Source: Octopus vulgaris
Lineage: Eukaryota
Length of the DNA stretch: 64,000 bases
NCBI GenBank assembly: GCA_951406725.2
Contig: OX597825.1
Location: 79,360,001 to 79,424,000, forward strand
Direction of reading: 5' to 3'
Shown here piece by piece: positions 876-59,785 of this stretch. A model generated the notes under the pieces. That model saw only the letters and a program-made list of their open reading frames with translations. It was not told where the DNA came from and made no database searches. Made by a program: the position numbers and the translations under genes. Within the stretch, counting starts at the first letter, position 1; each line of letters starts with the position of its first letter.

Positions 876-877
<2 letters not shown>

Positions 878-1075
878 AGATGTACTCGCATAGCAAGTAA
901 TTTGATCTGAGATCGTGTGCTGAAACGAAAACAATTGCAGCGTGGGAGGTGTTTATAAGCCATTTAAGAAACACACAAAAGCCGTTCGATTCACTCCAAC
1001 ATTTAAGTTTAATTTGTCAAAATATTTTCGTCGCTAAAATCCGCGACCTGTTCACTGACAAAGTCCGTGCTGCAT
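876..1075 (-). mobile_element. ~200-bp non-autonomous repeat (family F) in a (TA)n tract, carrying a hammerhead motif
   Basis: The same sequence recurs at 5243-5420 and, inverted, at 5985-6130. It is flanked by (TA)n on both sides. Confidence 0.8.
1013..1062 (-). ncRNA. Minimal type I hammerhead ribozyme motif, G3:C8 variant
   Basis: Minus strand reads UUUGUCA-GUGAACA-G-GUCGC-ggauuuua-GCGAC-GAAA-AUAU-UU-UGACAAA: 7-bp stem I, 5-bp stem II, GAAA, palindromic loop III. Confidence 0.7.
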
Positions 1076-1093
1076 CACATATATATATATGTA

Positions 1094-1134
<41 letters not shown>

Positions 1135-2289
1135 TTGTCTTTTAAGTCCTTATTTCCATGCTAACTTTTGGGTGAGACAAATATAGTATTGAGGCATTGT
1201 ATTACACCCAGATACCCAGCTTGTCATTAACTCATACCTGCTTTTCAAGTGAGGGGCCCCCTATTTCACATGTGTCTGAAGATATGAAGGAAGACGATGA
1301 TTTGTTGACAGGGAAACGACAAATTGTAGCTTAACTATTTTCAATAAAGTGCAGCTGTAAAGAAATGCACACATGCACACAGAGAGTGGGCTTCTCTCAG
1401 TTTTTGTCTATCAGATCCACTCCTGGCACAAAGCTTTAGCCAGTCTGGGGATATATCAGAAGATTGAAGGTGCCACGCAAAGGGACTGAACCAGAAACCC
1501 TGTGGTTGAGAAGTGAACTGTGTCACCACTCAACTTCTCCCCTCCCCCACCCACCAAAAATGGGCCCACATCTCCTACCTTCATTTCCCAATATCTCACC
1601 CTATTACCTCAATATCATCATCACCATCATTGTTTTATCATTCACTTTTCCATGTTTGCATGAAGCAAGACGGAATTTTTTTGAAGTGGATTTTCTATGG
1701 CTGGATGCCCTTCCTGTTGCTAACTCTCAACTATTTCCAACTGATGTAATACTTCCCCATGGCTAGACACATTTTCACAGAAACAAATGACAGTGAAATT
1801 TGTTTGCAACTACCATGCAATGTCAAGGCAAGATGACAGTAATGCACATGTACACACACACACACCAGCCTTCCTTCTTTCAGTTTCTGCCTACAAAATC
1901 CTCTCACATGGCCTTGGTTGGTCTGTGGCTACCTAAAACCATGTGGTTTGAAAGCAGGATTGGGAAGCGAGTGCTAGGCATAGTGTACGAAGGAGTTATA
2001 TATAGGTGGAGCACACAGGCTGGTGGGTGGCTAGCAGATAGCAGTAATAGAGTGAGTCAAGGCATGTGGGTAGAACACACAGGTCAGGGTCAAGTGGAGA
2101 GCAATGATACAGTGGTGCAAAGCTGAGAGGACAGGATTGGGGAGTGAGAGGTAATCAGAGTATACGAAGCGGAAATGTGAAGAAGAGAAGAGATGTAGAG
2201 ATGTAGTTTGGTTTGTTGTGGTAGAGTGTGTGAGAAGTTTTCTTGTGGGTGGGACACATAGTGCTTCTAGAACTCAATTTTGCTGAGGT

Positions 2290-2725
2290 GGGAGGGTCTT
2301 CTCAAGAACTTCATATTGCCAGACATCTCAGTCCATTGTCATTTCCTCCATGAGGCCCAACTTCCTCAGATCGGTCCTTACCATTTCATCCCAGTCTTCC
2401 TGGTTTTCCTCTTCCACAGTTACCATCCACTTTCAGTGATTGGCACTTCTTCACACAGCTGTCCTCATTCATACACATCACATGTCCAAACCAACATAGT
2501 CTTCTCTCTTGCATGCTGCACTTAATTCCTCTTATGCCCAACTTTTCTCTCAATACATTTGCCCTTTGCTGTACACGTGCACTGATGATGCACATCCAAT
2601 GGAGCATACCACCTCCGTTTCACTCCATCTATGCATGTCTTCTGCATTCAGAGCCCGTGTCTCACCACCATGGACTATAGCTGTTTTTACACAAGCATCA
2701 TATAGTCTACCTTTCACATTGAGAG
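2290..2725 (-). mobile_element. RTE-clade LINE fragment (C-terminal part of the RT ORF)
   Basis: ORF 2386-2607 reads LREKLGIRGIKCSMQERRLCWFGHVMCM...GRGKP, matching the RRLRWFGHV...GRPRKTW pattern of RTE elements. It is frameshifted. Confidence 0.8.
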
Positions 2726-3200
2726 AGAGAGAGTCCTGGAGGGTATATCAGCTGAAACATTGTGTTAACAACAAACAAGATGACAAATATTTCTCAAATG
2801 TAAATAATTTTAATAGTATATTTATATTCACATATTTGAAATGATGAAGCTATGAGATATTGCAAGATTAATTCAAAATGATGTAAATAAATAAACCTTA
2901 TATTTGACAAAGTAATCCGAATACGAAAGGGATATACATGTGTGCATATATATATGCATTTGTGTATGATGGACTCTCCTGGCAAAGACGATGTATGAGT
3001 GTTCAACTTTTACCAAGCAACCTGCACAGAAGATTTTACCTGAACACTTGTATGGTGTATCACACATCAGGTGTCAAAGTTATTGCAGAGCAATGTGAAA
3101 TGAAGTCTTTTGCTCAAGAACACAACACACCACCCAGTCTAGGAATTGAAACCATGATCTTACTATGCATCCTCTCTCTCTCTCTCTCTATGTTTGTGTT

Positions 3201-3621
3201 ACTTTTACTCTTATTTGTTTCAGTCATTTGACTGTGGCCATGCTGGAGCACTGCCTTTAGTCAAGCAAATCAACCCCAGGACTTATTCTTTGTCAGCCTA
3301 GTACTTATTCTATCGGACTCTTTTGCTGAACTGCTAAGTTACGGGGGCGTAAACACACCAGCATTGGTTGTCAAGCAATGTTGGTGGGGACAAACACAGA
3401 CGAACACACATATATACACGCACACACACACATACATACACATATATATATATACATACATGTATAAGATGGGCTTCTTTCAGTTTCCATCTACCAAATC
3501 CACTCACAAGGCTTTGGTCAGCCTGAGGCTATAGTAGAACACACTTGCCAAAGGTGCCATGCAGTGGGACTGAAGCTGGAACCATGTGGTTGGTAAGCAA
3601 GCTACTTACCACACAGCCACT
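3201..3621 (-). mobile_element. SINE family C, near full length
   Basis: Reverse complement of the copy at 46601-47003. tRNA-like head GTGGCTGTGTGGTAAG...GGTTC and an internal TA/CA microsatellite. Many partial copies, e.g. 1385-1530, 17177-17330, 23945-24100, 60485-60615. Confidence 0.8.
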
Positions 3622-4194
3622 ATATATATATATATATATGATATAAAGGAATTTCATGAATCCAAAAAGACCCAGCATACTGAACCCTAGGCATTACAGG
3701 AATGAATAGGAAAAGATCCACCACGAATAACTTTGAGGCTGCTGAAGAGGTTTCTAGATAGCTCTGGATAAAAACAAATGATCAGTGAAGTCACCAGATC
3801 AGGGCTGACCTTGGGCTAAACAACAGCAACTTAATTTATTTAATATCCGCCCAATCTAGTAAATCAGGAAATACTAGAATCAAGAAGCCCATGTTTTGTT
3901 TTTCTGTCAGAATTTATTAATGAACCAACCACATGCCATTTTCTTTTATCTCAGCAATTTGTTTATTTTTATACTGTGTACTTCAGAAGTTTCCTCCCAA
4001 ACATATTGTTTCTGGGTCATTCCTTGTTGTACTGCACCCTCAGCAAAGTGTCTTTTGCTTTAGTCTTGGGCTGATCAAAGCCTTGTGAGTAGATCTGGTA
4101 AACAGAAACTGAAGGAAACTCCTTGTGTGTGTGTTTCCTTGTCTTGTCATCATGGGAGGTAAACAAGTATCACTGCCAAAACAAACAGCATCTT

Positions 4195-4485
4195 CATCAT
4201 CATCATCGTTTAACGTCCGTTTTCCATGCTAGCACGGGTTGGACGGTTCGACCGGGGTCTGGGAAGCCAGGGGCTGCACCAGGCTCCAGTCTGATCTGGC
4301 AGTGTTTCTACAGCTGGATGCTCTTCCTAACGCCAACCACTCCGTGAGTGTAGTGGGTGCTTTTTACATGCTGGGGGAGTCTGGCATCGGCCACGATCGG
4401 TTGATGCTTTTAACGTGCCACCGGCACGGAAGCCAGTCAAGGCAGCGCTGGCATCGGCCACGTTTGGATGGTGCTTTTTATGTGC
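4195..4485 (-). mobile_element. SINE/LINE-tail family A with (GAT)n tail
   Basis: CATCATCATCGTTTAACGTCCG...CTGGATGCCCTTCCTAACGCCAACCAC occurs more than 20 times in the window, in both orientations. Confidence 0.85.
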
Positions 4486-5013
4486 TGCGAAATCATGTCT
4501 GGCAGTAAGGCTATATTACATTTACTTTGAAACAGGTGAAGGTTGGTAGCAGGGAGGGCATCCAGCCATTGAATATTTCCTTCAGTAAACTCCATCTGAT
4601 CCCTGTAAGCATGGAAAGGTGGACATTGAAACAGAAAGGATACATTTGGGGACCAGTTGATTGATTCAGTCGATTATTCCACAACTGGGAATGTAAACAT
4701 GCTAGAACAAATACCATATGACATTCTGTGGCTGTAATCCTCATCATCATCATTTAGCATCCACCTTTTCATACTTGCATGGGTCAAATGCAATTTGTTG
4801 AGGCAGATTTTCTACCACTGGTTGCTCTCCCTGTTGTCAATACTCTTCCTGTCTCTGCCAATTCATCTCTTATAGATTTTAAAAGGATACCCAGGCTAAT
4901 GCTTGCTTACACAGACAATTTTTGCTAGCTTCCTTGGGTTTCGGATTTTACCTCTCTCTCCCTCTCCCCCCTCTCTCTTTATATATACATATATATATAT
5001 ATATGTATGTATA

Positions 5014-5232
5014 TGTAACGGGAAGGTTTACGAAAATAAACAAAAGACGAAGGCAGGTTTACGAAAATTAACAAAAGGCAAAGGCAGGTGGAGTACAAAC
5101 CAACAATTGTATGGCGCTCAGGAATAGAAATAAAACAAGTCTTTTACGTTTCGAGCTTACGCTCTTCGACAGAAAGATACACAGAAAAGAAACAAGGAGA
5201 GAAAAAAATGTGTGTAGGAGCTAATGGTCCAA
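5014..5232 (-). mobile_element. Short Penelope-like/retrozyme-type repeat carrying a hammerhead motif
   Basis: Follows a (TA)n tract. Shares CGCTCAGGAA...TTTTACGTTTCGAG...GCTCTTCG with 55453-55655. Confidence 0.65.
5140..5177 (-). ncRNA. Minimal type I hammerhead motif with an A6U core change
   Basis: Minus strand reads UCUUU-CUGUCGA-A-GAGC-guaa-GCUC-GAAA-CG-UA-AAAGA. Confidence 0.7.
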
Positions 5233-5242
5233 TGTATATTAT

Positions 5243-5420
5243 GGAGATGTACTTGCATAGCAAGTGACTTGATCTGAGATTGTGTGCTGAAACAAAAGCA
5301 ATTGCAGCATGGAAGATGTTTGTAAGCCATTTAAAAACTGTTAGTTTCACTTCAACATTTAAATTTAGTTTGTCAAAATATTTTTGTCACTTTAAAACTG
5401 CAACCTGTTCACTGACAAAA
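5243..5420 (-). mobile_element. Family F copy with decayed HHR (5369-5419)
   Basis: Aligns by eye to 876-1075. It keeps stem I and GUGAACA, but GAAA has become AAAA. Confidence 0.8.
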
Positions 5421-5574
5421 CTTATATACACACGCAGGCACGTCTACACACATATGTAAATACTCACATACATATGTACATATATTCATACATAAATATA
5501 TACAGACATACATGTGTATATGCGTATATGCATGCATACACATGTACACATATGCATACATACACACATACATA

Positions 5575-5895
5575 CATAGGAGCACTCTGTTGGTTATGAC
5601 AACAAGGGTCCCAGCTGATACGATCAACGGAACAGTTTGCTCATGAAATTAAAGGTGCAAGTGGCTGAGTACTCCACAGACATGTGTACCCTTAACATAG
5701 TTCTCAGGGAGATTCAGCATGACACAGAGTGTGACAAGGCCGGCCCTTTAAAATACAGGTACTACTCATTTTTGCCAGCTGAGTGGACTGGAGCAACGTG
5801 AAATAAAGTGTCTTGCTCAAGGACACAACACGTCACCGGGAATTGAACTCATGACCTTACGATCATGAGCCAATTGCCCTAACCACTAAGCCACA
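5575..5895 (-). mobile_element. tRNA-derived SINE family D
   Basis: Minus strand reads GGCTTAGTGGTTAGG...GAGTTCAATTC (A/B boxes), then TTGAGCAAGACACTTTATTTCACGTTGCTCCAGTCCACTCAGC. Relatives at ~15000, 17700 and 22740. Confidence 0.75.
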
Positions 5896-5984
5896 CATAT
5901 GCATACATACACACATACATACATACATACTTACATGCATACATACATATACATCATGAACTAACTGTTACTTTCTCAGAAGCA

Positions 5985-6130
5985 GCACAAAGTTTTGTCA
6001 GTGAATAGGTCACGGTTTCAAAATAAAAAAAATATATCGACACAAATTAAATTTAAATGTTGAAGTGAAACTAATGCTTTTTGTGTGTTTTTAAATGGCT
6101 TACAAAACATCTTCCATGCTGCAATTGTTT
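5985..6130 (+). mobile_element. Family F copy, inverted and more decayed
   Basis: TTTGTCAGTGAATAGGTCAC...ATGTTGAAGTGAA...CATGCTGCAATTGTTT is the reverse complement of family F. Confidence 0.7.
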
Positions 6131-6135
6131 ATATA

Positions 6136-6276
6136 TAAGGTTGTCCCAAAAGTTCGTAGAAAGTCTTGGAAAATAATGGTCTTTATTTTGAGGAATAATT
6201 TTCGTTGTTTTTGTTAGTACTTGGCGAGTAAAAATTCAATTTTCGCAAGTGTTTACTAACTTTTGGGACAACCTAA
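6136..6276. mobile_element. mariner-type MITE
   Basis: TIRs AGGTTGTCCCAAAAGTT / AACTTTTGGGACAACCT, flanked by TA. Confidence 0.8.
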
Positions 6277-6384
6277 TATATATATAAATATGTATGTGTG
6301 TGTGTGTGCGTGTGCATGTGCACAAGCCATCTAAGAGTCCATAGGTCTGGAAAAAATGCACTCGATCACTATACCCACTATATA

Positions 6385-6730
6385 TTGGGTCAACCCATGA
6401 ATAATGCGGTTTTTTTTAATATATCTTTTATTTTTCAAAATTAACTTTCTTTTTTTAATCTAAAATATACTCTCCTTCATTTTCTACAATGCTCTTCCGT
6501 CTATCTGGTAGACTTGCAAGGCCCCTCTTCCAAAATTCACTTGTCTGGTGAATGTGGTGGGTGGAGCATCATTTCCCATTCAAACTTCTCCAGCCTTTGG
6601 AATGTCAGCCTCACTGTATGTGGCCGAGCATTATTAGTTTGACTACCATCCTTGCAACATCTATATTCTTTACTATGCCTGTCATCTCCTGTGTCCCTGC
6701 TGTAAGGCTTCACTTCCACACACGCCAGCT
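6385..6730 (-). mobile_element. mariner transposase remnant
   Basis: ORF 6537-6719 reads NNARPHT...LEKFEWEMMLHPPHSPD (DNARPH and HPPYSPD motifs). TIR-like end TTGGGTCAACCC follows TA. Confidence 0.8.
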
Positions 6731-7082
6731 TAATTTACTTCGTCTTTAGTCGAAAGACACCTGTTGTTAATGTCCTTTATTTGCATTTGTATTTGTGTAC
6801 CATTTCTCTGTTTTTTCTGCCCTTGTTTCTGTATACATTTGCTGCTTTCTTCCAAGGAATCTAGTGCTCTTAGCTTAGTTTTTCCTTGGGGCTGGCCAGA
6901 TTGGAGCAATCTCAAGTATAAGCAGCTGAAATTGCAAAGATAATCTGGAACTTGACTGAAGAAAGAAAACTCCAAATGACCCGGCCTTGTTTTTTTGTAT
7001 CGTCTGTCTGGATGTTTTGTTGTCCCTTTTTTGTATCATCTAACTTTCTGGCTGCTTTGTGATCTTGTTCCGCATCCTTTTC

Positions 7083-7139
<57 letters not shown>

Positions 7140-7148
<9 letters not shown>

Positions 7149-7415
7149 ATAAAGGATTGTGGTAAGGCCAGAACAATGCGAAGTAAATGCAAGGCAAATC
7201 ACAAGAAAACAAATATATGAATTAATGTAGACTCACCTTGTATTCAATATTTCAGGGTTATTAATTCATATATTTGTGTTCTTGTGATTTGCTTTGCATT
7301 TATTTCGCATTGTTCTGGCCTTACCCACGATCCTTTATACAATATATTCTACACAATGCTTCATAGCAATTATTCCATATTGCTCAGTGCCTCTCCGAAA
7401 GAGAGAGAGGCATAT
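7140..7415. repeat. Fold-back element in (TA)n: ~87-bp arms plus a one-sided tail
   Basis: 7140-7226 is the near reverse complement of 7260-7347, with a 33-nt spacer. Confidence 0.85.
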
Positions 7416-7434
7416 ATATATATGTGTGTGTGTA

Positions 7435-7476
<42 letters not shown>

Positions 7477-7477
7477 C

Positions 7478-7788
7478 ACGTGGCACGTTAAAAGCACCAT
7501 CCGATCGTGGCCGTCTGCCAGCCTTGCCTGGCCTCCGTGCCGGTGGCATGTAAAAAGCACCATCTGACCGTGGCCGTTTACCAGCCTTGTCTGGCACTTG
7601 TGTGCCGGTGGCACGTAAAAAGCACCCACTACACTCACGGAGTGGTTGGCGTTAGGAAGGGTATCCAGCTGTAGAAACATTGCCAGATCAGACTGGGTAT
7701 GGCGCAGCCTTCTGGCTTCCCAGACCCCAGTCGCACTGTCCAACCCATGCTAGCATGGAAAGCGGATGCTAAACGATGATGATGATGA
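7478..7788 (+). mobile_element. Family A copy
   Basis: Ends CATGGAAAGCGGATGCTAAACGATGATGATG and has internal tandem subrepeats. Confidence 0.85.
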
Positions 7789-7800
7789 TACACACATATA

Positions 7801-7856
<56 letters not shown>

Positions 7857-7957
7857 TATATATATACATATATATATAAAGAAACAAACAGGTTAATTTC
7901 AGTTTCTATCTGCCAAATTCAATCATTAATAGTGATGAAATGTAATGAAATATAATT

Positions 7958-7988
<31 letters not shown>

Positions 7989-11418: not shown

Positions 11419-12223
11419 GCAAAATTTTTTACCCACATGAGTCCTGGACCCCAGTAATGAACTCATTTGCATACAGCCAATCAGCTCACCTTGATCTTGT
11501 TAAGTTAACAAACAAACTCTACCAAGTAAACTCAAGACGAAGAATGGTGTTGTAAGGCGACCAATCACCAAGTTACGCCTGATTTTAGAAGGAGACAAGT
11601 AATTAGACAGATTTGCATCTGTACCTATTATTGGATTTTGTTAGGGCCTCATATGGTAGAGATGTGGATGGGAAAAATGTGGGTAGATAGGCGATATGCT
11701 AGCAATCCTCTTCCCTTACTGTTTTACAAAGTGATCAGCATAAATAACTACGCAGAGGCAGCCATGGTTGGAACAAGAACAAGAACAACAAGCATTCATC
11801 ATCATCATCATCATCATCATCGTTTAGCGTCCGCTTTCCATGCTGGCATGGGTTGGACGGTTCAACTGGGGTCTGGGAAGCCAGAAGGCTGCACCAGGCC
11901 CAGTCTGATCTGGCAGTGTTTCTACGGCTGGATGCCCTTCCTAACGCCAACCACTCCATGAGTGTAGTGGGTGCTTTTTACGTGCCAGATGAGGCTGGCA
12001 AACGGCCACGATCGGATGGTGCTTTTTATGTGGCACCGACACGGAGGCCAGTTGGTGGCACGTAAAAGAAAGAAGAAGCATGGTCATTCCTTACCCAAGT
12101 GACCTTATCTTATCGCCCATCACTTATGTGCTCATAAGTTAGTTTGATAGTTGAGCTTTGATTGGCTGTATGCAAATGAGTTCATAACTGAAGCCTAGAA
12201 CTCTTGTGGGAAAAAAATTTTGC
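11419..12223. mobile_element. Element with ~70-bp inverted ends containing octamer and CCAAT motifs; family A SINE nested at 11796-12066
   Basis: 11419-11488 is approximately the reverse complement of 12152-12223, including GAACTCATTTGCATACAGCCAATCA. Confidence 0.65.
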
Positions 12224-12885
12224 TTCCCGGGCAAGCAGATTTATTTATTTATTTTTGTGTTTGTCTTTCACCACATAATGACCAGTGTTGTTCATTTCCA
12301 GTCTTCCATGAAAACATGTCTGGTCATGGGCAAATGCTACATTGCTTGGAAACAGGTGTGGGTTTGTGACAGGAAGGGCATCTGGTTGTAGAAAAATCTG
12401 CCTCAACAAATTTCATCTGACCCATGCAAGCATGGAAAAGTGGACATTAAAACGATTGTGGTGATATATAATTAACTGTGTCTTCTCTCTCTCTCTCTGT
12501 CCATCCCACTGATATGGAAATCAAAAGTAATTAGCTGCTCGATGCTTTCGTGTGTCTCTGTATTTCATGGAGGGTCATTTACTTTTGCTGTTTGCTGAGT
12601 GTAATAAATATGAATATTATTTATAAAACGAAGAAGAGAAACATGTATCTATTTCAATCAAACCCTTTCAGTACAGTTTACTACTAGTAATTTGCAGTAA
12701 AACTAAATATTTATCGTCCAGGGATTTTCAGTGGGTGCCCACTAGCACATACACACACACACATCATCATCATCATCATCATCTAACGTCCATTGTCCAT
12801 GCTGGCCTAGGTTAGACAGTTTGACTGGAACTGGTGAGCTGGAGAGCTGCACCAGGTTCCAGTCTGATTTGGCATGCTATCTTAT

Positions 12886-13113
12886 TTCTTTACTGCCCAC
12901 AAGGGGCTAAACATAGAGGGGACAAACAAGGACAGACAAACGGATTGAGTCGATTACATCGATCCTAGTGCGTAACTGGTACTTAATTTATTGACCCCGA
13001 AAGGATGAAAGGCAAAGTCGACCTCAGCGGAATTTGAACTCAGAACATAATGGCAGATGAAATACCACTAAGCATTTTGCCTGGTGTGCTAATGTTTCTG
13101 CCACCTCACCGCC
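12886..13113 (-). mobile_element. tRNA-derived SINE family B inserted into a family A copy
   Basis: Minus strand reads GGCGGTGAGGTGGCAGAAAC...GAGTTCAAATTCC...GCCTTTCATCCTTTCGGGGTC. Family A sequence resumes after it, and TGGCATG is duplicated. Confidence 0.85.
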
Positions 13114-13574
13114 TGGCATGGTTTCTACGGCTGGATAACCTTCCTAACACCAACCACTCCAAAAACACCTACATACTTGGTATGTAATGCCATGTAATTA
13201 ACAATGGTCACATTATATATATCTTAAAGTATACAGTATTATAGATCCATTACAACCGATCTGACCAATCAATTTTTGGAGATGGCAGATAAGGAAAATA
13301 TATGCACTGATTGATTAATATACTCACACCATTGACAAATAATCAAGTGACAATTTTTCCTGAGTCATGGATTCTTAGAAGACTATATATATATAACTGG
13401 AACACAACTATAAATTTACAGTGTAAAATGGTGATGAAATATAACCTCAGATCTACCACTAGAATATACGGAGTTCTTTACTAATCTAAACAATATTGTT
13501 GGCCTGGTGTGCTAAAAGAGAGCTTATAAAGTATTATGACCAGACTGATAATCCCTCACTAATCACTCTGTTTT

Positions 13575-22800: not shown

Positions 22801-23715
22801 AGTGTGTTGTTTTTGAGCAAAACACTTAATTTCACATTGCTCCAGTCCACTCAGCAGGTAAAAGTGAGTATTCCTATGACAGACTGGCAGCCCATCCAGG
22901 GGGAATATATACGCCACAGGAACTAGTAAATCAGCCCTACGAGTCCATATGACTTAGGAATGAGCTGGTTGAGCAACCACATAGAGGCTCTTTTGTTAGA
23001 TTATAAAATTAGTCGTGGTAATCTAGTCCTTGGTTTATTGGGAGAGATATTTTCTTTTGAGTAACATTTGTATTAATTAGTAAAGATATTATAATTAAAA
23101 CAGATGTCTCTCTCTTTCATTTCTAACAAAAAATATTGCCATTGTTGGCAATATTATTGAAGCTCACAGCATTATTAATTCTGACCTGCTCTGACCTGAC
23201 CCGATTGACCTGAGCTGACCTCCAGATTTAAGTTGGTCGACTTTGATACAACTGAAGTCTAGTGTCTGGTGAAAAATAACAAAAGCTTTTGTTTTTAATA
23301 TATTATACATGTCTTTTATGATAATTCAATGGTTTATCTGTTGCCAAGGAGATATTAATTTCTGGTTCTGAGACAGTGCTATCTTGCCATCACATCTCCA
23401 TAATTATTTTAACATTCATTTTTCCATGCTTGCATGGGTCAGGCAGAATGTGTTAAGGTGGACTTTCTACAACCCTTCCTGCCCTTTCAATGCCCATCCT
23501 GTCACCAACCCTCACCTGTTTCCAAGTAAGGTAATATTTCCCCCATGGCCAGACATTATTCTCCTGGAAGACTGGACATGAAGGACATCGCCTGCATGAT
23601 GGTGACACTCATTTACAACTGTTACAAGAAGTCAAAGCAAGGAAACAGTAATACGCATAAATGCTTGCACACATCCATATATACATACATTCACAATGAA
23701 CTTCTTTCAGTTTCT

Positions 23716-23945
23716 TATTTCTTTATTGCCCACAAGGGGCTAAACACAGAGGGGACAAACAAGGGCAGACAAAGGTATTAAGTCGATTACATCGATCCCA
23801 GTGCGTAACTGGTACTTATTTAATCGACCCCGAAAGGATGAAAGGCAAAGTCGACCTCGACGGAATTTGAACTCAGGACGTAATGGCAGACAAAATACCG
23901 CTAAGTATTTTACCCGGTGTGCTAATGTTTCTGCCAGCTCGCCAC
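23716..23945 (-). mobile_element. SINE family B nested in family C
   Basis: Full-length copy with target duplication CTTCTTTCAGTTTCT on both sides. Confidence 0.85.
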
Positions 23946-25619
23946 CTTCTTTCAGTTTCTGTCTATCAAATCTACTCACAAACACTTTGGTTGGCCTGAG
24001 GCTATAATGGAAAACACTTGCTGGAGGTACCATGCTGTAGGACTGAACCTAAGACTCTGTGGCTGGGAAGCAAACTTTTTGCCACACAGCTATGCCTGCT
24101 TCATCTATATTGCTGCTATGGTTGTGTAGCTTCTACGTCAGTCCTAGTTTGTCTTACAGGTGTTACAGGTTCTGACAAGATAAGATGCTAAGTAAAAGCT
24201 TATATATATGCAGACTCCCTGTTAAATAACTGCATAGTTTAATTTCTGTGGACTTTATATGTAAATTGCTAATTAGCTAAGAGAATTAAATCTGTGTGTG
24301 TGAGTGTGTGTGTGTGTGTGCATAAATATATGAGGTCTTACAGATGTTAACTAGAGGAGTTTTTCTCTAGTCCTTTATCATCTGTGCTAAATCCATTATC
24401 GATCTGTTAATCCCAGTGTAAGATGAAGAATTATTTCTTACATTTTATAGTCAAAGGAAGAGATTACTGTAGCTCAATATATTACATATTCCACTCTTCA
24501 TAGCAGCCTTAGACATATATACATATATATCGTTTTTTTTGTTTTTTTTTCCTGCACTGAGTATCAAGTGTCTAGTCTTCGCTGTCATGGCTGTGTTCAG
24601 CACAGCTTTCTATTTAATAACTTGAGACACTCTTGAGAAAATATTGTTCAAGCATTTATTCCCTACTACTGTAGAAAATGTATTTTTAGATAACAAATTT
24701 GTCTTGAGATGATTTTTATATATATATATATATATCGTCATCATCATCGTTGTTGTTTAATGTCTGCTTTCCATGCTGGCATGGGTTGGATGGTTCAACT
24801 GAGGACTGGCAAGCCAGGAGGCTGCACCAGGTTCCAATCTGATCTGGTAGTGTTTCTACAGCTGGATGCCCTTCCTAACGCCAACCACTCTGAGAGTGTG
24901 GTGGATGCTTTTTATGTGCCACCAGCACAGAAACCATTCAGGCGGCACTGGCATCATCTAGTAGTAGGTAACTCCTTTCATGGAGATCACAATGAGTTTG
25001 GCATCTTCCAATGTCACCATTTACTCTAATGATGCCAAGTAATTGAGATATCCACTTATATTTAAATCGAACAGCTGTCTTAATTGCTTAGCAAAAATAA
25101 GAACTTTTTGCTTAGTGATGTTTCAGACACCAGCTTAATGAAAAATTAGTTCATCATTTTACATCTGCTTTTTTTTATGTTTGTATGAGATTAACAGATC
25201 TTCATACTCAGAGTCCATTCTCATTTAGAGTTCCTGCCCCCTTGAATGGGTCAGAGGACTACATTTCACTTACACTTTCCAATTTTGTATATTTTTAGAA
25301 TTGGATAACCTTCCTAATGCCAGCCACTTTACAGAGTATACAGGGTGCATCTTGGCACCAGCACTAGAATGGTTGTCATCTGCTCAATAAGACTAAGGAG
25401 TCTTCTTTACTCTATATTGTCTCTGTTCGTTATCTTACTAAATCCATCTTAATTATTTCTTAATTAAAACTCACAAGCAATGCATTTCAGCATTGATGGG
25501 AACCCAAAAAAGGTTAAAAGAAGGATGAAAGGAAATCAGATATTATTTGCCAGAAATGTGGTACAACGGAATCCATGGACCTGTCTTCAGTAGCATAGCA
25601 ATGCTAATAATAATAATGA

Positions 25620-32965: not shown

Positions 32966-33353
32966 TCTTTTCTACTCTAGGCACAAGGCTTGAAATTTTT
33001 GAGTCGATTAGATTGACCCCAGTACGTAACTGGTACATAATTCATCGACCCTGAAAAGATGAAAAGCAAAGTCGACCTTGGCGGAATTTGAACTCAGAAT
33101 GTAAAGACAGATGAAATACCTATTTCTTTACTACCCACAAGGGGCTAAACACAGAGAGGACAAACAAGGACAGACAAACAGATTAAGTTGATTATATCGA
33201 CCCCAGTGCGTAATTGGTACTTATTTAATCGACCCCGAAAGGATGAAAGGCAAAGTTGACCTCGGCGGAATTTGAACTCAGAATGTAGCGGCAGACGAAA
33301 TACTGCTTAGCATTTCGCCCGGCGTGCTGACGTTTCTACCAGCTCGCCGCCTT
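32966..33353 (-). mobile_element. Dimeric family B SINE within a dense B cluster (32230-33600)
   Basis: Same architecture and junction as 27145-27543. Confidence 0.8.
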
Positions 33354-43392: not shown

Positions 43393-43530
43393 ATTATTTA
43401 CATTCGACATATTTGTCCTCATCATGTTTGTTGTTAACGCAACATTTCAGCCGATGTACCCTCCAGCCTTCTTCAGGTGTCTTGGGGGAATTTCGAACCT
43501 GGGTTCTCATTCCAATGGTATTTTTCAAGG

Positions 43531-47065: not shown

Positions 47066-47327
47066 TATCTATACAATATGTTACATTACTGTAGTCAAGA
47101 TAAAATGAGTATCAGATGCCGAAGTGGAAATCCACAACACCATCTCTTCGGTTATCTGGCTATTATCTGGAAATAGCCAGATAACCGAAGAGATGGTGTT
47201 GTGGATTTCCATATATAGAGTTTTATATGACTAGTAATGTAACATATTGTATAGATAAATTTCCTCTATTTACATAATATTGAGGTCTCTTTCTTTCGTT
47301 CTTACCGTTTATCAATATATATATTAT
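47066..47327. repeat. Nested fold-back element in (TA)n
   Basis: Perfect 40-bp arms at 47125-47164 / 47172-47211, outer arms at 47066-47090 / 47233-47257, and a right-hand tail. Confidence 0.85.
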
Positions 47328-52476: not shown

Positions 52477-53306
52477 CAAGGTACGTTCTAGAAGTTTTGA
52501 GATTTTTCAGGAGAGACGTTTATTGATTTCAAAGAAGTACAAGACTCTGATCTCCTTCAAAATAGGATCCTCTGACTTCAGTGCACTTCCAGCCACTTTG
52601 TGAAAGTCCCATGGGAGTCTTCCAAAGTGAAGGTTTTTTGGGACCCTTGTCACAGCTTCCTTCATCTTTAAGAGCAGCCAAAAGTTACAGGAAGCGGGAA
52701 GCAAGGTCTGGTCTGTAGAGAGGATATGGGACAGTTCTGATGCCCATTTCTGTCATGTAGTTGGTTACCAGGATAAAATTGTGGGCTGGTGCAGGTACTT
52801 TAGCCTTTTGTGATGAAATCTCTTCCAGAATTCCCTCAAAACTTCCACAAAATACTCTTTGTTGATTGTTAAGTTTGAGAGAAACTGAGTGGATGTAGAT
52901 GATGCCCATGCTGTCAAAAAAGAGGGTCATCATGAGTTTCCTGGTGAACTTGCTTTGCCTGGCCTCTTGATTCAGTGAAGACCAGTTAATCCATAAGCAG
53001 GCTGAAGTATTCCATATGTTTCTGTAGCATTTTTTCTCAGTTTAACACAAAACTGTATTCCAAATTGAGCTTCCAAACTGTCTTCACGTTCTGGCTTCAT
53101 TCTGAAAATTAGCCAACTGTGACCAGCAGTGTTTATTAGGGTGTGTCCAATGTGCTCTTTACAGCTGTCTCCTCCATCTGGAATAACAAAAGTTGGCAGA
53201 TCAGCTTATTGGATATATAGTAGTGGTATACTAAAGTTACAATAATCTAGGGCTGTTATAACTGTCTTTCCTAAAAGAGTCTCAAAAACCTCTGAAATGC
53301 ACCTTG
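52477..53306 (-). mobile_element. mariner remnant with both TIRs
   Basis: TA-CAAGGTACGTTCTAGAAGTTTTGAGA ... TCTCAAAAACCTCTGAAATGCACCTTG-TA. Translation includes KLMMTLFFDSMGIIYIH and YPLYRPDLAS (YSPDLAP-like). Confidence 0.85.
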
Positions 53307-54144
53307 TAAACCTCGTTTCACCCTTTTACTTGTCATATCTTGTAACCTGGATTTCAACAGTAAATTGGTTTGTTACTCTTACAAAAACACTCTTCTAAAC
53401 TATTCTGTTGATTTCACATTTTCTACACTATTTATAAACACAGCATAGTCATAAAAAACAAATAGCATTTCTATTATAAACAATGATTATGTTAATATGT
53501 TGCTGTTAAGTTCCAGGTTAGACCTGAATGAACAAACCTATGATCAAACGTATTCCAGCTGTGACCATCCCATTTTTTTCTTGACTGCTTTATTCAAGGT
53601 GCCCTTGTGTCCTTTTCCTCCCTGCCCCATCCCCAAGACTGTAAGCTTGACAAGTTTATATAATATACAATATATATAATTATAATCTTCAACACATACT
53701 GTTTTAATATCTACAATTCACCATTGATCACAAGCAGATTTCTCTTTTAAAATAACTTAATAACTATGTGTGAGCATGAGTATTTCCTGGGTAGGTTGGT
53801 ATGTAGAATGGTTAAAAGCAAATTAGTATATAGTATATATATATGGGCAGTAAGTTGATAAGGTACCAGATGGCCGGCCTAGAAGTAAGGAGCTCTGTTG
53901 GGTCATTGGGCAAATGACTCTGTCTGTCAGATAGACAATACACAGAAGAGTCACAACGTTCCACGCTAAACATTAATGCTGTAAAATTGAGAGAGGCCCC
54001 TATGTGGTTACTTGAACTGTTATATATAACAGCTAAATCTCCTCAAATCCATTCTTTACTTCTATTTTAACCCTTTAGCATTACGGTTTCTTTGTCCAAT
54101 GTAATACTTATTTATTCACGTTATTTTGAATTAATCATGCATTA

Positions 54145-54570
54145 ATGGTCTCAGTCCTATGTCATTGCCTCCGTGAGGCCCAACACTGGATAGGTGCTTT
54201 TTATTTGGGCTACCAGCACAGGTGCCAGTTACGCGACACTGGCATTGGCAGGTGCTTTTTATGTGCCACTAACATGGGTGCCAGATTCCTCCATGAGGCC
54301 CAACGCTTGAAAGGTGCTTTTTTCATGCCAGGTACATGACACCAGCATCGACCACATTGTCTCTGTGAGGCTCAACGCTTGAAAGGTGCTTTTCATGTGC
54401 CACTGGCATGGGTGCCAATTATGTGACACTGTGACACTGGCATCAGCCACAACTACAACTTCACTTAGCTCTTCTCGAGCACAGCATATTGCCAAAGGTC
54501 TCGGTCATTAGTCATTGCCTCCATGAGGCGCCCAACGTTTGAAGATCATGCTTCACCACCTCGTCCCATG
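54145..54570 (-). mobile_element. RTE LINE ORF end and 3' UTR with tandem subrepeats
   Basis: Minus strand reads WDEVVKHDLQTL..EAMTNDRDLWQYAVLEK. Shares CATTGCCTCCGTGAGGCCCAAC with ~2340 and GGTGCTTTTTATGTGCCAC with family A. Confidence 0.7.
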
Positions 54571-55452
54571 TGTATGTATATAACTGTGTATGTATATAAA
54601 TTCGTGTGTAAATATATTTGTGTCATTATCATCATCGTTTAATGTCTGCCTTCCATGCTGGCATGGGTTGGATGGTTTGATAGGAGCTGGCCAGGCAGGA
54701 ACCTGCACCAGACTTCTGTGTCTGTTTTGGCAGGGTTCACAGGTGTATAAATATATAGGCACAGGTGTAGCTGTGTCAGAAGAAGATTGTTTCCCAACCT
54801 CATGGTTCTCAGGGGGAGGGTGGGGGTTGTCCACCACCCACCATTTAAGAACCGGTGTTGGTGTGTTTATGTCACTGTAACTTAGTGGTTTGGCAAAAGA
54901 AACTGATAGAATAAGTACCGGATTTAAAAATAGAAAAATAATTACTGGGATTGCTCCATTCAGCGAAAAGTCCTTGAAGGTGGTGCCCCAGCATGGCCGT
55001 AGTCTAATGACTGAAACAAGTAAAAGATACAAGATAAATATATTCATGGGTGAATTTATATATATATATTTGTGTATGTATAAATATGTTCATGAGTGTA
55101 AATCTGTACGTGTATGTAAATATATCATCATCATTATCATCGTTTTACGTCAGTCCTCCATGCTGGGAAGGGTTGGGCTATTTCAGAGAATTCAGCAAGC
55201 CAAAAGACTACACATAACACTGCATCGGTGTGTCTGTGTGGTTTTTAATACATTCAATGTTATGAATATCATATGTAACCTGATTTTTTTGTGTAGGGAA
55301 AAACCTAAATAGATATTATTTAATATCTTTGATGTATATATACATACATACATACATACATACACACATGTCTATATATACATACATTCACATGTGTGTG
55401 TGTATATATGTATATATATCTATCTCTCTCTCTATATATATATATATATAAA

Positions 55453-55655
55453 GTTAATCCAAACATGAAAACACAAAGAGAAAACACAACAACGCGAGGA
55501 CGTGGAACAAATATAGTATTATTGGACGCTCAGGAAGGAAGGGAAGAAGGAGGGTTTTACGTTTCGAGTGGAGCTCTTCGTCAGAAACATAGGAGAAGGA
55601 AAGATCAAGAGAAGGGAAGACGGAGGAAAAAAAATCTCCCAATGGTACACACGCA
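55453..55655 (-). mobile_element. Short Penelope-like/retrozyme-type repeat with an intact-core hammerhead
   Basis: Lies between TA and CA microsatellites. Related to 5014-5232. Confidence 0.7.
55554..55588 (-). ncRNA. Minimal type I hammerhead motif, canonical core
   Basis: Minus strand reads GUUU-CUGACGA-A-GAG-cucca-CUC-GAAA-CG-UA-AAAC, with a GUA cleavage triplet. Confidence 0.75.
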
Positions 55656-55657
55656 GT

Positions 55658-55712
<55 letters not shown>

Positions 55713-56517
55713 GCACATACATAACGGAGTGGTTGGTGTTAAGAAGGGCATGAAGCTGTAGAAACTCTGCCAGATCAAGATTGGAGCCTGGTGCGGCCGT
55801 CTGGTTCGCCAGCCCTCAGTCAAAATCGTCCAACCCATGCTAGCATAGAAAGAGGACGTTAAACGATGATGATGATGATAATGATTGGAACTATGCCCAA
55901 GTGGACACCAGAGCTCAATACAGTCCTCTGGCTTATTAGATCCTATCAACTGCCTGATCCTTTGTGTAATGTTAGATACAGGCATCCACACATGCATACA
56001 TACATTCTAGCACTGATGAACACATTCCAGCACATGTTATTGAGAGTTCTAGCATAGACTTGACATACATTCTAGCACACACATACATATACACACCTGC
56101 ACCCTGATATGTGCCTGCACATGCAGTATGCACCTGCACATCCACACAGCCAGCTATGCAGCTACACCTGCAGATATGCACATGCGCCCACTCATACAGA
56201 TACAAATGAGCCTGCACACACGGACATGCAGCTGCCCCTACATAATGATGCAGACATGCACCTGCGCACACACTTGCAGGTATGTAGCTGCACACATGCA
56301 TGTATGCAGCTGCACCCACACAAACACACACACACACCTGTGTGCACACTCGAGCATTCCCTTTCTCCATCGCTCGCCCACGTTCACTTACTCTTCCTCT
56401 CTTTCTCTGTCTCTGTCAAGTACAAAGATCTCATGAAGAATGTCTCTCTGTCCACAAGACACCTGTTAATTTGATAAATTGAATTTTTGCGATACACTAT
56501 ATTAAAACTCCAAGAAT

Positions 56518-56669
56518 GCTTACAACTGATTGGATCCGACACAGCTTGTATGATGGTAATGGTTATTTACAACTGACTGGATCTGACACAGCTTGTATGT
56601 TGCGGATAGTTGCTTACAACTGATTGGATCCGACACAGCTTGTATGATGCTGATGATTGCTTCCAACTA
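56518..56669. repeat. 47-bp tandem repeat, ~3.2 copies
   Basis: TACAACTGA.TGGATC.GACACAGCTTGTATG starts at 56521, 56568 and 56615. Confidence 0.9.
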
Positions 56670-56776
56670 TAATATGAGACGATAATCAAGACAAGGAAAC
56701 ACGTATATACACCTGATGGGCTACTTTCAGTTTCCATCTCTCAAATCCATTCACATGGCATTGGACAGCTTAGGGA

Positions 56777-57040
56777 TCATCATCATCATCGTTTAGCGTC
56801 CGCTTTCCATGCTGGCATGGATTGGATGGTTCAACTGGGGTCTGGGAATCCAGAAGGCTGTGTCAGGCCCAGTCTGATCTGGCAGTGTTTCTACAGCTGG
56901 ATGCCCTTCCTAACACCAACCACTCCGTGAGTGTAGTGGGTGCTTTTTACGTGCCACTGGCACAGGTGCCAGACGAGGCTGGCAAACGGCCACGATCGGA
57001 TGGTGCTTTTTATGTGTCACTGGCACGGAAGCCAGTCGGG
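56777..57040 (-). mobile_element. Family A copy nested in family C
   Basis: Nearly the same as 11796-12066. Family C sequence lies on both sides. Confidence 0.85.
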
Positions 57041-58565
57041 GCAGGAAGCGAGTCAGGGCTAGGAAGCCAGTTGGATATAGTAGAAAATACTTGCCCAAGG
57101 CGCTGCACAATGGGATTACCCTTGAGACCATGCGGGTGCAAAAATCAGTTTCTTAACCACGCAGCCTTGCCAACACCTATGCATTTAATGCACTTAATAT
57201 TTAAAATTTAATTTTCTTTTTAACCGTTGGGTGATTATGATTGCTTTTTAACTGCCTGCTGCAGTTAGAGAAAACAGTTTTTGTTGCATGAATTTCCAAT
57301 GTGTGTGACAAGCTGTCCACTCATCATAACAATTTTAATCTGATGATAGATGCACATATATTTTACAACATTCACCAACTGACCTATTTCATCTGTTGCT
57401 GTTGCATCTATTCTCTTTGATATTTTTGGCTAATGTCACCCAATAAAGGATGAACGTTTTTCACAGGAAATGGCATATCAAGAATCTGTGAAGATAAAAT
57501 GAAAACGAGAAAGAAAAACAAAAATTGAGACAAAGCTCCTTTTTGTCTTGCTTTTAACATTTTAAACTTTGTGAAAAAAAAAAAAAAATGTTGTATTTAT
57601 TGTTGTTGTTGTTAACTCGGTGTTTTAATTTCTTTTTTTTTTGTCATTTCTGTTTTCCTGTATAACTTTGTGAAATGACTTTACAACAGCAGAAGTTTTT
57701 GTCAACCCCCCCTCCTCTCCTACTTTTCACTCCTCTTCTCTCCTACCTCCTCTCACTCTTACTCTTCATCCATATCTCCTCTCACTTCCACTTATCACTC
57801 CTACCTACTCTCACAACTACTTTGTCACACCTACCTATTCTTCACTCCTACTCTAAAATTCACTCCTACTTTATCACTCCTCTCTCCTCCCGCTCCAATG
57901 TCATCATACAGTCAAACAATATGAGTGTTCACTTGGTCATTCAACAGACTAGGAATAGCAGCCAAGTGTCCCTCAACCCACACCTTACTTTCTTAAAAAA
58001 ATGAAAAATATCACATTTTGTAGCACAATCTTGGGCGCAGTATTTATTAAAATAAGACTGGATGATCACAAGTGGAAAACCTTTGATCACAGGTCTGCAC
58101 CATCAAGCCTGACCTTATGTAAGATGTAGGATGTTCATGGAAATGTATTATTTCTGCTTCTCTTAAGGCTGTCTCATTGGTTTTGATCTCATCTCCACAA
58201 TAACAATCAATAGCTAGTGAAATATAGAGGGGGCGTCTAACTAGCCTTGCAACAACCTGTTAGAAATAGAAGCCAAATCTCTATGAAAAAATGGAACAAC
58301 ACATTGGATGATGATATTCTTAGAAATGCTATGTCTGGAAAAGAAACGACAGATTAGTTACAACTTATGACCACCTTGACCAAAATTGGCCTCTGGCGCT
58401 AAACAATTAGTAGTTTCTGAAAATGAATGATTCAGCTTTGACAACTGTTCTTGGTAACCAGAATCTAAACCATTGCCATAACCTCTGTCCTGACTTGTTT
58501 GTCAGCTCATATTTATTTATCGTTTCTTTAAACCCTATCACGTAACAATCAATCTGTTCTTTATA

Positions 58566-58722
58566 CGAGGTCTGCTCAATATGTATCTGGACTGTTGCTA
58601 TAATAATGAAGCTAAAGCATACAGAGTGAAACCGCTTGGCATAGATTGATCTTGAACTCTGCTGTTTACAGCAGTGCTTGGAAGGAAGGTGTGTAGCGTG
58701 CGATTGTCGCATTGACCATGAC
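58566..58722 (+). mobile_element. mariner-like terminal fragment
   Basis: TA-CGAGGTCTGCTCAATATGTATCTGGAC is a TIR-like start. No coding part is recognisable. Confidence 0.5.
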
Positions 58723-58895
58723 TTTGTGAAATGACTTTACAATAGCAAAAGTTTTTGTGAAAAAAAACCTCCTCTCACTTCTACTTTTCAACTCCTCCTC
58801 TCTCCTACTTCCTTTCTCTTTTATGCTTCATCCCTACCTCCTTTCATTTCCACTTATTACTCCTAACTACTCTCACAAATACTTTATATATATAT

Positions 58896-59362
58896 GGCCT
58901 CTTGGAGCTAATCAACAACAGCATTCGTCCTATTTTTCTGGACTGCCATGTTAGCTTGTTGCTAACTATTAATATCCAATACTGCTGCCGTAGTCTCCTT
59001 TAGAGCGAATTAGAAATAATGATATTTCTATTTTTGAAAACCAGTAGATGTATTCCACTGAATTTAGGTAAATAATCCTTCGAACAGTAGGTCAGCAGCG
59101 ACACCTGTTAGATTCGGCTAATCCACATTGATAAGAAGCAAACACCTTGAAACTAGTCTGTGGATGCCAGACCAGCAAGGGGAAGCTGCTGACCTCCTCT
59201 GTTCGAAGTTTATAATGGACACAGGTTTGTGTCTTGGAGCAAATCAACAGCAGCATTTGTCCTATTTATCTGGACTGCCATGTTAGTTTGGCGATAACTA
59301 TTAATATCCAGTACTGCTGCCATAGTCTCCTTTAGAGAGTATTAGAAATAATGATATTTCTA
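58896..59362 (+). mobile_element. Retrozyme-like partial tandem (1.4 monomers, 332-bp period)
   Basis: Direct repeats at 58900-59030 and 59232-59362, a central long hairpin with an HHR, and (TA)n on both flanks. Confidence 0.75.
59121..59165 (+). ncRNA. Type I hammerhead motif, U3:A8 variant
   Basis: Reads AUCCACA-UUGAUAA-gaagcaaacaccuu-GAAA-CUAG-UC-UGUGGAU: 7-bp stem I, palindromic loop III, GUC site, weak stem II. Confidence 0.7.
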
Positions 59363-59445
59363 TATATATATATATATATATAACATTATTGGTGAATTGA
59401 AGAAATGGAGCTGAACGCAGATTGAACAGAAATCGTTTTATTTCA

Positions 59446-59525
59446 TTCTACACGTGTTTCGAAAGGCACAAATTACCAAAATCCGATTGAATAATGGGAC
59501 CATATTGTGTCTTTCTCTTCAGGAA
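59446..59525 (-). ncRNA. Type I hammerhead motif (left-arm copy)
   Basis: Reverse complement of 59706-59785. Confidence 0.7.
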
Positions 59526-59705
59526 GAAAAAGGAAATCCGTTAGAGAAACAAAAACAGAACAGAGGCGGAGCAAAAACCAAATCGAACTATGCTCCTAAG
59601 AGCCCATGGCGAAACAGTTTCGCCATGGGCTCTTAGGAGCATAGTTCGATTTGGTTTTTGCTCCGCCTCTGTTCTGTTTTTGTTTCTCTAACAGATTTCC
59701 TTTTC

Positions 59706-59785
59706 TTCCTGAAGAGAAAGACACAATATGGTCCCATTATTCAATCGGATTTTGGTAATTTGTGCCTTTCGAAACACGTGTAGAA
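59706..59785 (+). ncRNA. Type I hammerhead motif (right-arm copy)
   Basis: Reads UUC-CUGAAGA-GAAAGACACAA-(33 nt)-UUGUGCCUUUC-GAAA-CACGUG-UA-GAA. Confidence 0.7.

Follow-up and report, generated by a model that had tools for sequence, protein, structure and literature searches.

Hammerhead ribozymes at the ends of Penelope-like elements (PLEs) are known, and the arrangement reported here is, as a system, not new. The minimal hammerheads of metazoan PLEs were described in 2014, including forms with a U3:A8 pair, forms with an extra base after A9 and opposite-strand pairs 100 to 700 bp apart, and the molluscan examples listed come from Lottia and Crassostrea (PMC4209133). For PAc (Poseidon) of the lizard Anolis, Frangieh et al. 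2024 report uncut RNA as the main substrate, a ribozyme that depends on the protein, and partial rescue of cutting by an engineered C3G/G8C change (PMC11167929). The hammerhead is kept almost everywhere in PLEs, and yet uncut RNA gets inserted (PMC11167929). Non-LTR retrozymes, a further group, are thought to depend on PLEs (PMC7229834; bioRxiv 10.64898/2026.07.22.740005). For cephalopods, an octopus repeat annotation searched by keyword mentions neither hammerhead nor ribozyme (PMC13282606). Here we follow up a sequence-only reading of a 64-kb stretch of the Octopus vulgaris genome (the window), which had cited seven hammerhead motifs in several repeat families.

Hammerhead motifs in the window

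All seven cited motifs are present where they had been placed, with G3:C8 at 1055(-), C3:G8 at 43476(-), 55584(-), 59522(-) and 59709(+), C3:G8 together with U6 at 5172(-), and U3:A8 at 59128(+). Five of the seven match a strict descriptor (complementary 3:8 pair, A6, stem II of at least 3 bp, GAAA, exact palindrome, UH, and stem I of at least 4 bp); the 5172 motif matches only if position 6 is left free, and the 43476 motif fails through a palindrome broken by a CpG change and a mismatch in stem I. An eighth motif, at 62139(+), lies beyond the cited range and matches strictly. The core N3-U-G-A-N-N8-A with GAAA...UH, in type I order and with stems I and II, was found in families A, B, D, E (twice) and F (Table 1). 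The palindromes of stem III in the families' motifs are exact and 4 to 8 nt long, G5, G12, A13, A14 and the palindrome are intact in every family, and the invariant A6 is kept in six families, with B2 as the sole exception. Judged from their sequences, the window motifs are real minimal hammerheads of type I whose stem III is palindromic, as first proposed, and are predicted to self-cleave. Predicted homodimer folds did not consistently yield a hammerhead dimer, and the energy predictions are not decisive.

The window holds 6 strict matches against a mean of 0.033 (maximum 1) per shuffle in 60 local dinucleotide shuffles; non-complementary 3:8 matches numbered 0 in the window and 0.117 per shuffle in the same 60 shuffles. 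The descriptor was tuned after the motifs were known, so the fair test is the 600-kb genome sample described below. In an Rfam scan of the window, the 150 matches listed out of 229 were microsatellite and hairpin noise and included no hammerhead family, and no Penelope-like coding remnant was found within the 64 kb. Counting decayed copies, the window contains 11 copies of seven families. Several lie in (TA)n tracts, as had been noted, but the copy at 43436 adjoins (TAA)n. The description of the families as unrelated needs a similar correction: there are several, but those at 5140 and 55554 are sisters, and the motifs at 59446 and 59706 are two arms of one inverted insertion.

Table 1. Hammerhead-bearing features of the window (window coordinates)
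Feature	Position	Strand	Details or basis
Family A solo copy, putative 3' end (pseudo-LTR) of a PLE	876..1078	-	(TA)n on both sides
Family A minimal hammerhead, G3:C8	1013..1062	-	Descriptor match
Family C partial copy, stem II to stem I' only	2736..2782	+	Sequence match
Family B2 solo copy, putative 3' end of a PLE	5018..5240	-	3' end in (TA)n
Family B2 minimal hammerhead, C3:G8, U at the normally invariant A6	5140..5177	-	Fixed across the family
Family A decayed hammerhead copy	5353..5419	-	G3:C8 retained; GAAA and stem II damaged
Family A heavily decayed copy	5982..6062	+	Profile match, E 1e-7
Family C minimal hammerhead, C3:G8, decayed	43436..43481	-	Short repeat starting in (TAA)n tract
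Family B solo copy, putative 3' end of a PLE, sister of B2	55450..55660	-	Upstream remnants in L359 and L360
Family B minimal hammerhead, C3:G8, A6, palindrome ACGU, A17	55554..55588	-	Descriptor match
Family D, partial and full unit of ~360 bp, head to tail	58894..59360	+	Between (TA)n tracts
Family D minimal hammerhead, U3:A8, palindrome ACUAGU, C17	59121..59165	+	Descriptor match
Family E insertion made of two arms that meet head to head at 59616	59385..60000		Putative 3' end of a PLE
Family E hammerhead, C3:G8, long stem II, palindrome ACACGUGU, A17	59442..59529	-	Descriptor match
Family E hammerhead, second arm	59702..59789	+	Descriptor match
Family F minimal hammerhead, C3:G8, absent from the sequence-only reading	62133..62175	+	Descriptor match

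Pairing at positions 3 and 8 and genomic density

We searched 600 kb of the genome, made up of 60 evenly distributed stretches of 10 kb each, without fixing the bases at positions 3 and 8. This recovered 19 matches, 18 of them complementary at 3:8 (14 C:G, 3 U:A, and 1 G:C) and one non-complementary, compared with 0.125 complementary and 0.625 non-complementary matches per shuffle over eight shuffles; a descriptor without the palindromic loop ran at chance level in this sample (3 matches, none complementary). The pair had been proposed to covary, which is borne out across families but not within family A. Covariation inside families was sought in the aligned family copies and in the family A matches and was not found: the family A core with positions 3 and 8 free has 7,906 genome matches, and among the first 100 listed 94 carry G3:C8 and 6 carry a single change, with no double change. 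The 3:8 change thus lies between families rather than within them; the family A pair is fixed and decays without compensation, and each family appears to have fixed its own pair (C:G, U:A, or G:C).

The sample contains 18 intact motifs per 600 kb. A single array accounts for 7 of these, leaving about 11 separate loci and a spacing of roughly one intact motif per 33 to 55 kb; a rough extrapolation from the 18 per 600 kb suggests tens of thousands of intact motifs genome-wide. Recognisable copies of the seven window families number 28 per 600 kb, against 0 in a shuffle. The frequency of one per 8 to 10 kb given earlier describes only this window, with its decayed copies included; the genome sample is several times sparser. 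As predicted, searches restricted to CUGANGA miss some motifs and undercount hammerheads.

Coding parents of families A, B, B2, and E

A link to a Penelope-type reverse transcriptase (RT) had also been anticipated, and RT and endonuclease coding sequence does lie upstream of A, B, B2, and E in their longer copies. In many loci the hammerheads of A, B2, and E have endonuclease coding sequence on the same strand within 2.5 kb upstream; the family E query was out of frame and served as a position marker only. [quoted passage not shown] The putative RT identity of the element frames comes from motifs read in the translations and from Atlas look-alikes, which at 0.95 to 0.98 include RT, GIY-YIG, and HTH_animal families. 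The GIY-YIG matches of the element frames all fall under the curated Pfam cut-off, and the E frame has no Pfam match; neither the A nor the E frame gave a Pfam RT match or a solved-structure match, and A gave no PDB sequence match. None of A, B, B2, and E is a non-coding unit without its own RT, as a retrozyme would be.

The family A hammerhead has an extra G after A9, a 5-bp stem II, the palindrome AAUAUU, and U17, which is expected to slow hammerhead cutting; the predicted cut falls between 1020 and 1019 (-). The solo copy matches at 100% identity in all 40 places scored, and a 29-mer spanning the core has 906 exact copies in the genome. At one locus (L102) the layout is pLTR, coding region, pLTR, and (TA)n, with family A sequence on both sides in direct orientation. 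The parent element codes for RT, a Cys linker, and GIY-YIG (E 2e-4, just below the Pfam cut-off); the coding frame at L102 carries a frameshift, and none of the family A frames seen was fully intact. Family A is young and abundant, and its swapped core pair likely means that the fold is still under selection.

Short family A copies have a fixed start about 20 nt ahead of the core, at a point that also resembles a splice acceptor, are often in inverted pairs, and end in (TA)n; their 3' ends favour two positions separated by about 60 nt, which recalls the PLE tail. Among unselected matches, 22 of 30 share no more than 11 nt upstream of the anchor with the long element. Of 15 short copies extending to the start, 11 have a G ahead of it in place of the long element's T; some of these 15 are near-duplicates, and some extra G's could stem from fold-back junctions rather than a cap. 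Splicing of a transcript whose first exon is very small is a possible source of the short copies; their GTG starts are equally well explained by fold-back on a near-palindrome. Contigs from four sequencing runs presumed to be RNA listed no splice joint at the family A start, a result given no weight here because such contigs do not resolve ends, strand, or cleavage. When 30 matches were taken with an anchor downstream of the cut site, 24 contained the core, 2 (representing one insertion) started near the predicted cut, 2 started inside GAAA, 1 was truncated internally, and 1 had a rearrangement of the 5' core. In most copies the ends are not set by self-cleavage, and most checked copies hold an uncut ribozyme.

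Families B and B2 are sisters, separated by a compensatory swap in stem I, and in both the pLTR was seen only as a 3' end after the frame. The U6 of B2 occurs in 20 of 20 aligned copies and in 98 of the first 100 listed among 8,495 matches obtained with position 6 free. The 5172 motif might have been a damaged family B copy, a possibility ruled out by this separate family with a fixed U6; the 5' side of its solo copy adjoins a decayed family A copy. Family B copies meet the strict descriptor in 17 of 20 cases. Two loci (L359 and L360) carry RT and GIY-YIG remnants upstream of B that are 53 to 61% identical to those of B2. Another locus, L363, was rejected as a B parent because a different endonuclease lies upstream of its B hammerhead.

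The family E insertion consists of a short minus-strand arm (59385-59615) and a long plus-strand arm (59617-60000), and all 20 of 20 family E copies meet the strict descriptor. An open frame of 899 codons precedes the hammerhead in three loci (L092, L093, and L095), and L095 also has an upstream partial repeat. Its translation contains DKT, RWL, CNLC, and CPH together with a long low-complexity insert; a CxCX5C linker is not evident. By motif only, family E looks Hydra-clade-like.

Families D, C, and F

Family D is the only window family that looks retrozyme-like and non-coding: no coding frame was found in 20 loci with 1.5-kb flanks, and in 13 of the 20 the family's own 3' part lies directly upstream in the same orientation. 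The loci usually have one hammerhead each and are mostly one-and-a-fraction units. Stem I runs on into a long inverted repeat, and 13 of 20 copies match the strict descriptor. Elsewhere, a 359-bp array (L149) is likewise retrozyme-like in form. The proposal of a non-autonomous system therefore suits family D but not the four named families that represent ends of putative protein-coding elements.

Family C was found here solely as short copies, 8 of 20 meeting the strict descriptor. Family F is old, its copies being 71 to 85% alike and only 2 of 19 meeting the descriptor. Neither has a linked RT frame or other coding partner within the flanks of 20 loci each.

Origin and activity of the short copies

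We favour, with a probability of about 85%, the interpretation that the motifs sit at the pLTR ends of several PLE families and that most window copies are short by-products which RT made from uncut end transcripts. Transcription would start at an internal promoter just ahead of the ribozyme; the element's protein would bind near the RNA 3' end, nick AT-rich DNA, and copy back to the capped 5' end, giving solo copies of about 200 bp. The ribozyme would cut slowly, as a dimer via its palindromic stem III and in only part of the RNA, probably aided by the element's protein. Family D would stand apart: its head-to-tail, non-coding units of about 360 bp likely borrow a Penelope RT, as is thought for non-LTR retrozymes. 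That the motifs instead arose by chance, a loose descriptor having been applied to low-complexity DNA, we consider next to impossible: the descriptor was adjusted post hoc and its palindrome-free version performs at chance level, but the shuffle controls refute this explanation both in the window (6 versus 0.033) and in the independent sample (18 versus 0.125), and every motif is shared by the copies of a family and lies where PLE ribozymes are known to lie. It is improbable, too, that the short copies propagate themselves as non-autonomous elements (retrozymes or SINE-like solo pLTRs), being self-excised from transcripts, circularised, and copied by Penelope RT. Such a cycle fits the form of family D and of the 359-bp array, the large excess of short over long copies, and the occurrence of family C only as short copies, and fixed 5' ends are also expected from a solo copy with an internal promoter; yet A, B, B2, and E have coding parents, their short units form no head-to-tail arrays in the loci read, and solo copies span both sides of the cut site rather than being permuted there.

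A further question concerns activity and is compatible with the proposed origin: the folds might be relics, structural signals (for protein binding, promoter, or RT), or merely inherited, with most no longer cutting. Family B2 spread to at least 8,495 copies with U6, and position 6 changes lower activity (PMC3088659); family A combines U17 and G3:C8, both expected to be slower (for G3:C8, see PMC11167929); insertion in vitro does not need cutting (PMC11167929); and copies, once inserted, decay neutrally. Selection on an active-site fold would nonetheless be expected to leave a double change with the 3:8 pair restored and the core and palindrome intact; 18 of 19 sampled matches are complementary, and B and B2 differ by the compensatory stem I swap. 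We regard a general loss of activity as unlikely, though less so than self-propagation. We propose only tentatively, as possible rather than probable, that the natural G3:C8 hammerhead of family A is catalytically active and fixed in an autonomous PLE that was active recently and has ~8,000 copies, and that the B/B2 pair is a lineage spreading with a weakened core. If this is true, one genome holds a natural series (C:G, U:A, G:C, and U6) whose active-site fold is selected though insertion needs no cutting, which would suggest that cutting at the mRNA 5' end is tuned, slow, or gated by protein. The genome offers a comparative set for cleavage and transposition assays, with G3:C8 (100% identical copies), U3:A8, and an A6/U6 sister pair.

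Comparison with known systems

The octopus families resemble the metazoan PLE hammerheads in their type I form, short stem I, palindromic stem III, and position in pLTRs, and in occurring mostly as single truncated copies, thousands per genome, in many families (PMC4209133). Neither an octopus entry nor a core with G3:C8 or U6 occurs in the searched text of that paper, whereas both cores are fixed here in large RT-linked families. Within the literature searched, we found no fixed A6U hammerhead family and no natural fixed G3:C8 family tied to RT, with one unrelated mention of the latter pair (PMC3884650). The short-stem-III hammerheads of Lunse, Weinberg, and Breaker (cited in PMC6765202) are likewise small and PLE-associated, and there they cleave as dimers.

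Family D and the 359-bp array share with non-LTR retrozymes head-to-tail non-coding units of 350 to 360 bp and a type I hammerhead (PMC7229834; bioRxiv 10.64898/2026.07.22.740005), whereas family D has U3:A8 and mostly one-and-a-fraction units, and A, B, B2, and E are of another kind. On motifs only, A, B, and B2 share a Cys linker before GIY-YIG and a (TA)n target with the Neptune/Nematis clade of PLEs with a C-terminal endonuclease (EN+), while E, also on motifs only, shares DKT, an RW motif, CxxC and CxH near the C end, and the (TA)n target with the Hydra clade, from which it differs in its long low-complexity insert and the absence of a clear CxCX5C linker (PMC8557442). The likeness to PAc covers the hammerhead in the pLTR, AT-rich insertion DNA, two RT start sites (tail), and the insertion of uncut RNA; PAc belongs to another clade, and the G3:C8 pair that was engineered there is natural in family A, where cutting is predicted (PMC11167929).

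Hammerhead motifs in the window and the genome

All the motifs named in the sequence-only reading are present, its numbers marking the low end of each. The strict descriptor (complementary 3:8 pair, A6, stem II of ≥3 bp, GAAA, exact palindrome, UH, stem I of ≥4 bp) matched the window 6 times, at five cited motifs and at 62139(+), whereas 60 local dinucleotide shuffles gave a mean of 0.033 matches; no hit with a noncomplementary 3:8 pair came up in the window. Because this descriptor was shaped on the window motifs, we drew a fresh sample of 60 evenly chosen 10-kb stretches (600 kb) of the host assembly and left positions 3 and 8 free. The pair was complementary in 18 of the 19 matches (14 C:G, 3 U:A, 1 G:C), while shuffles of the sample averaged 0.125 complementary and 0.625 noncomplementary matches. 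Neither the motifs nor their 3:8 complementarity is due to chance.

The proposed density of one motif per 8 to 10 kb describes this window but not the sample, where the spacing of intact motifs is about 33 kb, or about 55 kb when separate loci are counted, since 7 of the 18 complementary matches sit in one tandem array. Including decayed copies, the seven window families have 11 copies in the window and 28 in the 600 kb; shuffled sequence had none.

Hammerhead motifs (position 3, except family F) and interspersed repeats in the window
Feature	Position	Strand	Remark
Family A hammerhead	1055	-	strict descriptor
Family B2 hammerhead	5172	-	U at position 6
Family C hammerhead	43476	-	decayed copy
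Family B hammerhead	55584	-	strict descriptor
Family D hammerhead	59128	+	strict descriptor
Family E hammerhead, first arm	59522	-	strict descriptor
Family E hammerhead, second arm	59709	+	strict descriptor
Family F hammerhead	62139	+	strict descriptor; not previously cited
Short interspersed repeats, first group (examples)	4190-4373, 11804-11987, 56773-56956		
Short interspersed repeats, second group (examples)	12880-13114, 23713-23947, 33118-33352		

Short interspersed repeats, with (CAT)n and (TAA)n tracts as anchors, are abundant in the window, which also holds a near-perfect 85-bp palindrome (47126-47210) that draws spurious miRNA matches and is likely an inverted repeat insertion, and short frames at 347-625 and 52685-53041 (minus) that resemble mariner-type transposase remnants.

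Variants of the catalytic core

Covariation of the 3:8 pair, as earlier claimed, holds between families but not within family A, where the pair is fixed: among the first 100 listed matches, 94 are G3:C8, 6 carry single changes, and none carries a double change. A 29-mer of this family has 906 exact copies, and the family has 7,906 matches with positions 3 and 8 free; such exact-pattern counts are lower bounds, and the first matches listed are drawn from the beginning of a single chromosome. Subfamilies of A vary in loop II and keep the stem. Family B2 has U6 in 98 of the first 100 listed of 8,495 matches. B2-like motifs with core CUGUAGA occur in other stretches fetched from the assembly (L039:368, L101:8927, L322:224), and the U6 state extends over more than one subfamily. 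U3:A8 characterizes family D and several other motifs in fetched loci; further ones outside D proper (L228:2465(-), L240:2071(+), L194:6377(-), L180:9959(+)) include D-like and apparently unrelated ones.

Carriers of the hammerheads

The suspected Penelope link was borne out for four families (A, B, B2, and E) by linked RT/GIY-YIG coding sequence or an 899-codon frame. For family A, all 40 scored places match at 100%. Its sequence flanks a coding region on either side in the fetched stretch L102, followed by (TA)n; that region encodes a YVDD motif of RT type and a Cys linker and ends in GIY-YIG. The family A frame scores 22 bits for GIY-YIG, slightly below the Pfam cutoff, and look-alikes of its protein in the Atlas are RT proteins.

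Family E (59446/59706) is a single inverted insertion; of 10 fetched stretches, 3 hold longer copies with the 899-codon open frame. The frame's motifs resemble those described for the Hydra clade; clade names here are assigned from motifs. Relatives of its protein (47 to 57% identity; L208:8404-9993, L035:1821-3206) point to additional families of this clade in the genome. At least nine more sequence-distinct, E-like hammerheads, whose stem II is very long and whose palindromes span 6 to 8 nt (L152, L184, L201, L066, L069, L074, L092, L127, L319), possibly represent a Hydra-clade design.

Families B2 (5140) and B (55554), previously counted as unrelated, are sisters, because the RT and GIY-YIG remnants upstream of them are 53 to 61% identical; in stem I, a G-C pair of one is replaced by a compensatory C-G pair in the other.

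Family D (59121) is a unit of ∼360 bp; in 13 of 20 loci the unit's own 3' part immediately precedes it, with no coding frame between the two, which is how a non-LTR retrozyme is laid out. For families C (43436) and F (62139), 20 loci each revealed no coding partner. At L149:2150-4750 (G000:C1:20002150-20004750) lie near-identical units of 359 bp, five of them head to tail and two inverted; every unit has a type I hammerhead with C3:G8, a 4-bp stem II, and a long stem I, and the arrangement reads as a young non-LTR retrozyme array.

Origin of short family A copies

Upstream of the anchor, 22 of 30 unselected family A matches have ≤11 nt in common with the long element, which places the start of short copies ∼20 nt before the core. 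Of the 15 short copies that reach this point, 11 have a G before the start in place of the long element's T, as expected from a copied cap; some of these G's may instead stem from fold-back junctions. The start site also resembles a splice acceptor. Just upstream of it, at L102:7455-7482, a CTAAC resembling a branch point, a pyrimidine run, and TAG form a possible intron end adjoining stem I, an arrangement reported for the Drosophila element. With the anchor placed on the downstream side of the predicted cut, matches numbered 4,201; of the 30 examined, 24 include the core, 2, both from one inverted insertion, start near the cut, 2 start within GAAA, 1 has an internal truncation, and 1 shows a rearrangement of the 5' core. 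The 3' ends fall mostly at two points ∼60 nt apart. Solo copies, short copies of the element's 3' end (pseudo-LTR) lacking the coding region, would be made by RT from uncut, capped run-off RNAs of the element's end.

Comparison with known systems

This run-off proposal agrees with the one Penelope-like element studied in vitro, for which PMC11167929 gives uncut RNA as the main substrate, a protein requirement for cutting, and partial rescue by C3G/G8C. Retrozymes are described in PMC7229834 and a 2026 preprint. PMC13282606 lists recently active Penelope-like families in an octopus genome and, in the passages covered, does not mention ribozymes. No natural family with G3:C8 or a fixed U6 turned up in the literature covered, which does not include the most relevant paper, Lunse et al. 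2017, nor one supplement, and these two core variants may be unreported so far. Perreault 2011 (PMC3088659) reports U3-A8 as a natural state and A6C as a weak variant. Cervera and De la Pena 2014 (PMC4209133) describe minimal hammerheads in Penelope-like element ends, thousands per genome; these have one more base following A9 and a palindromic stem III, and they include opposite-strand pairs, a U3-A8 family, and molluscan examples. The motifs reported for this window are thus real, and the system is the one already known, with new members.
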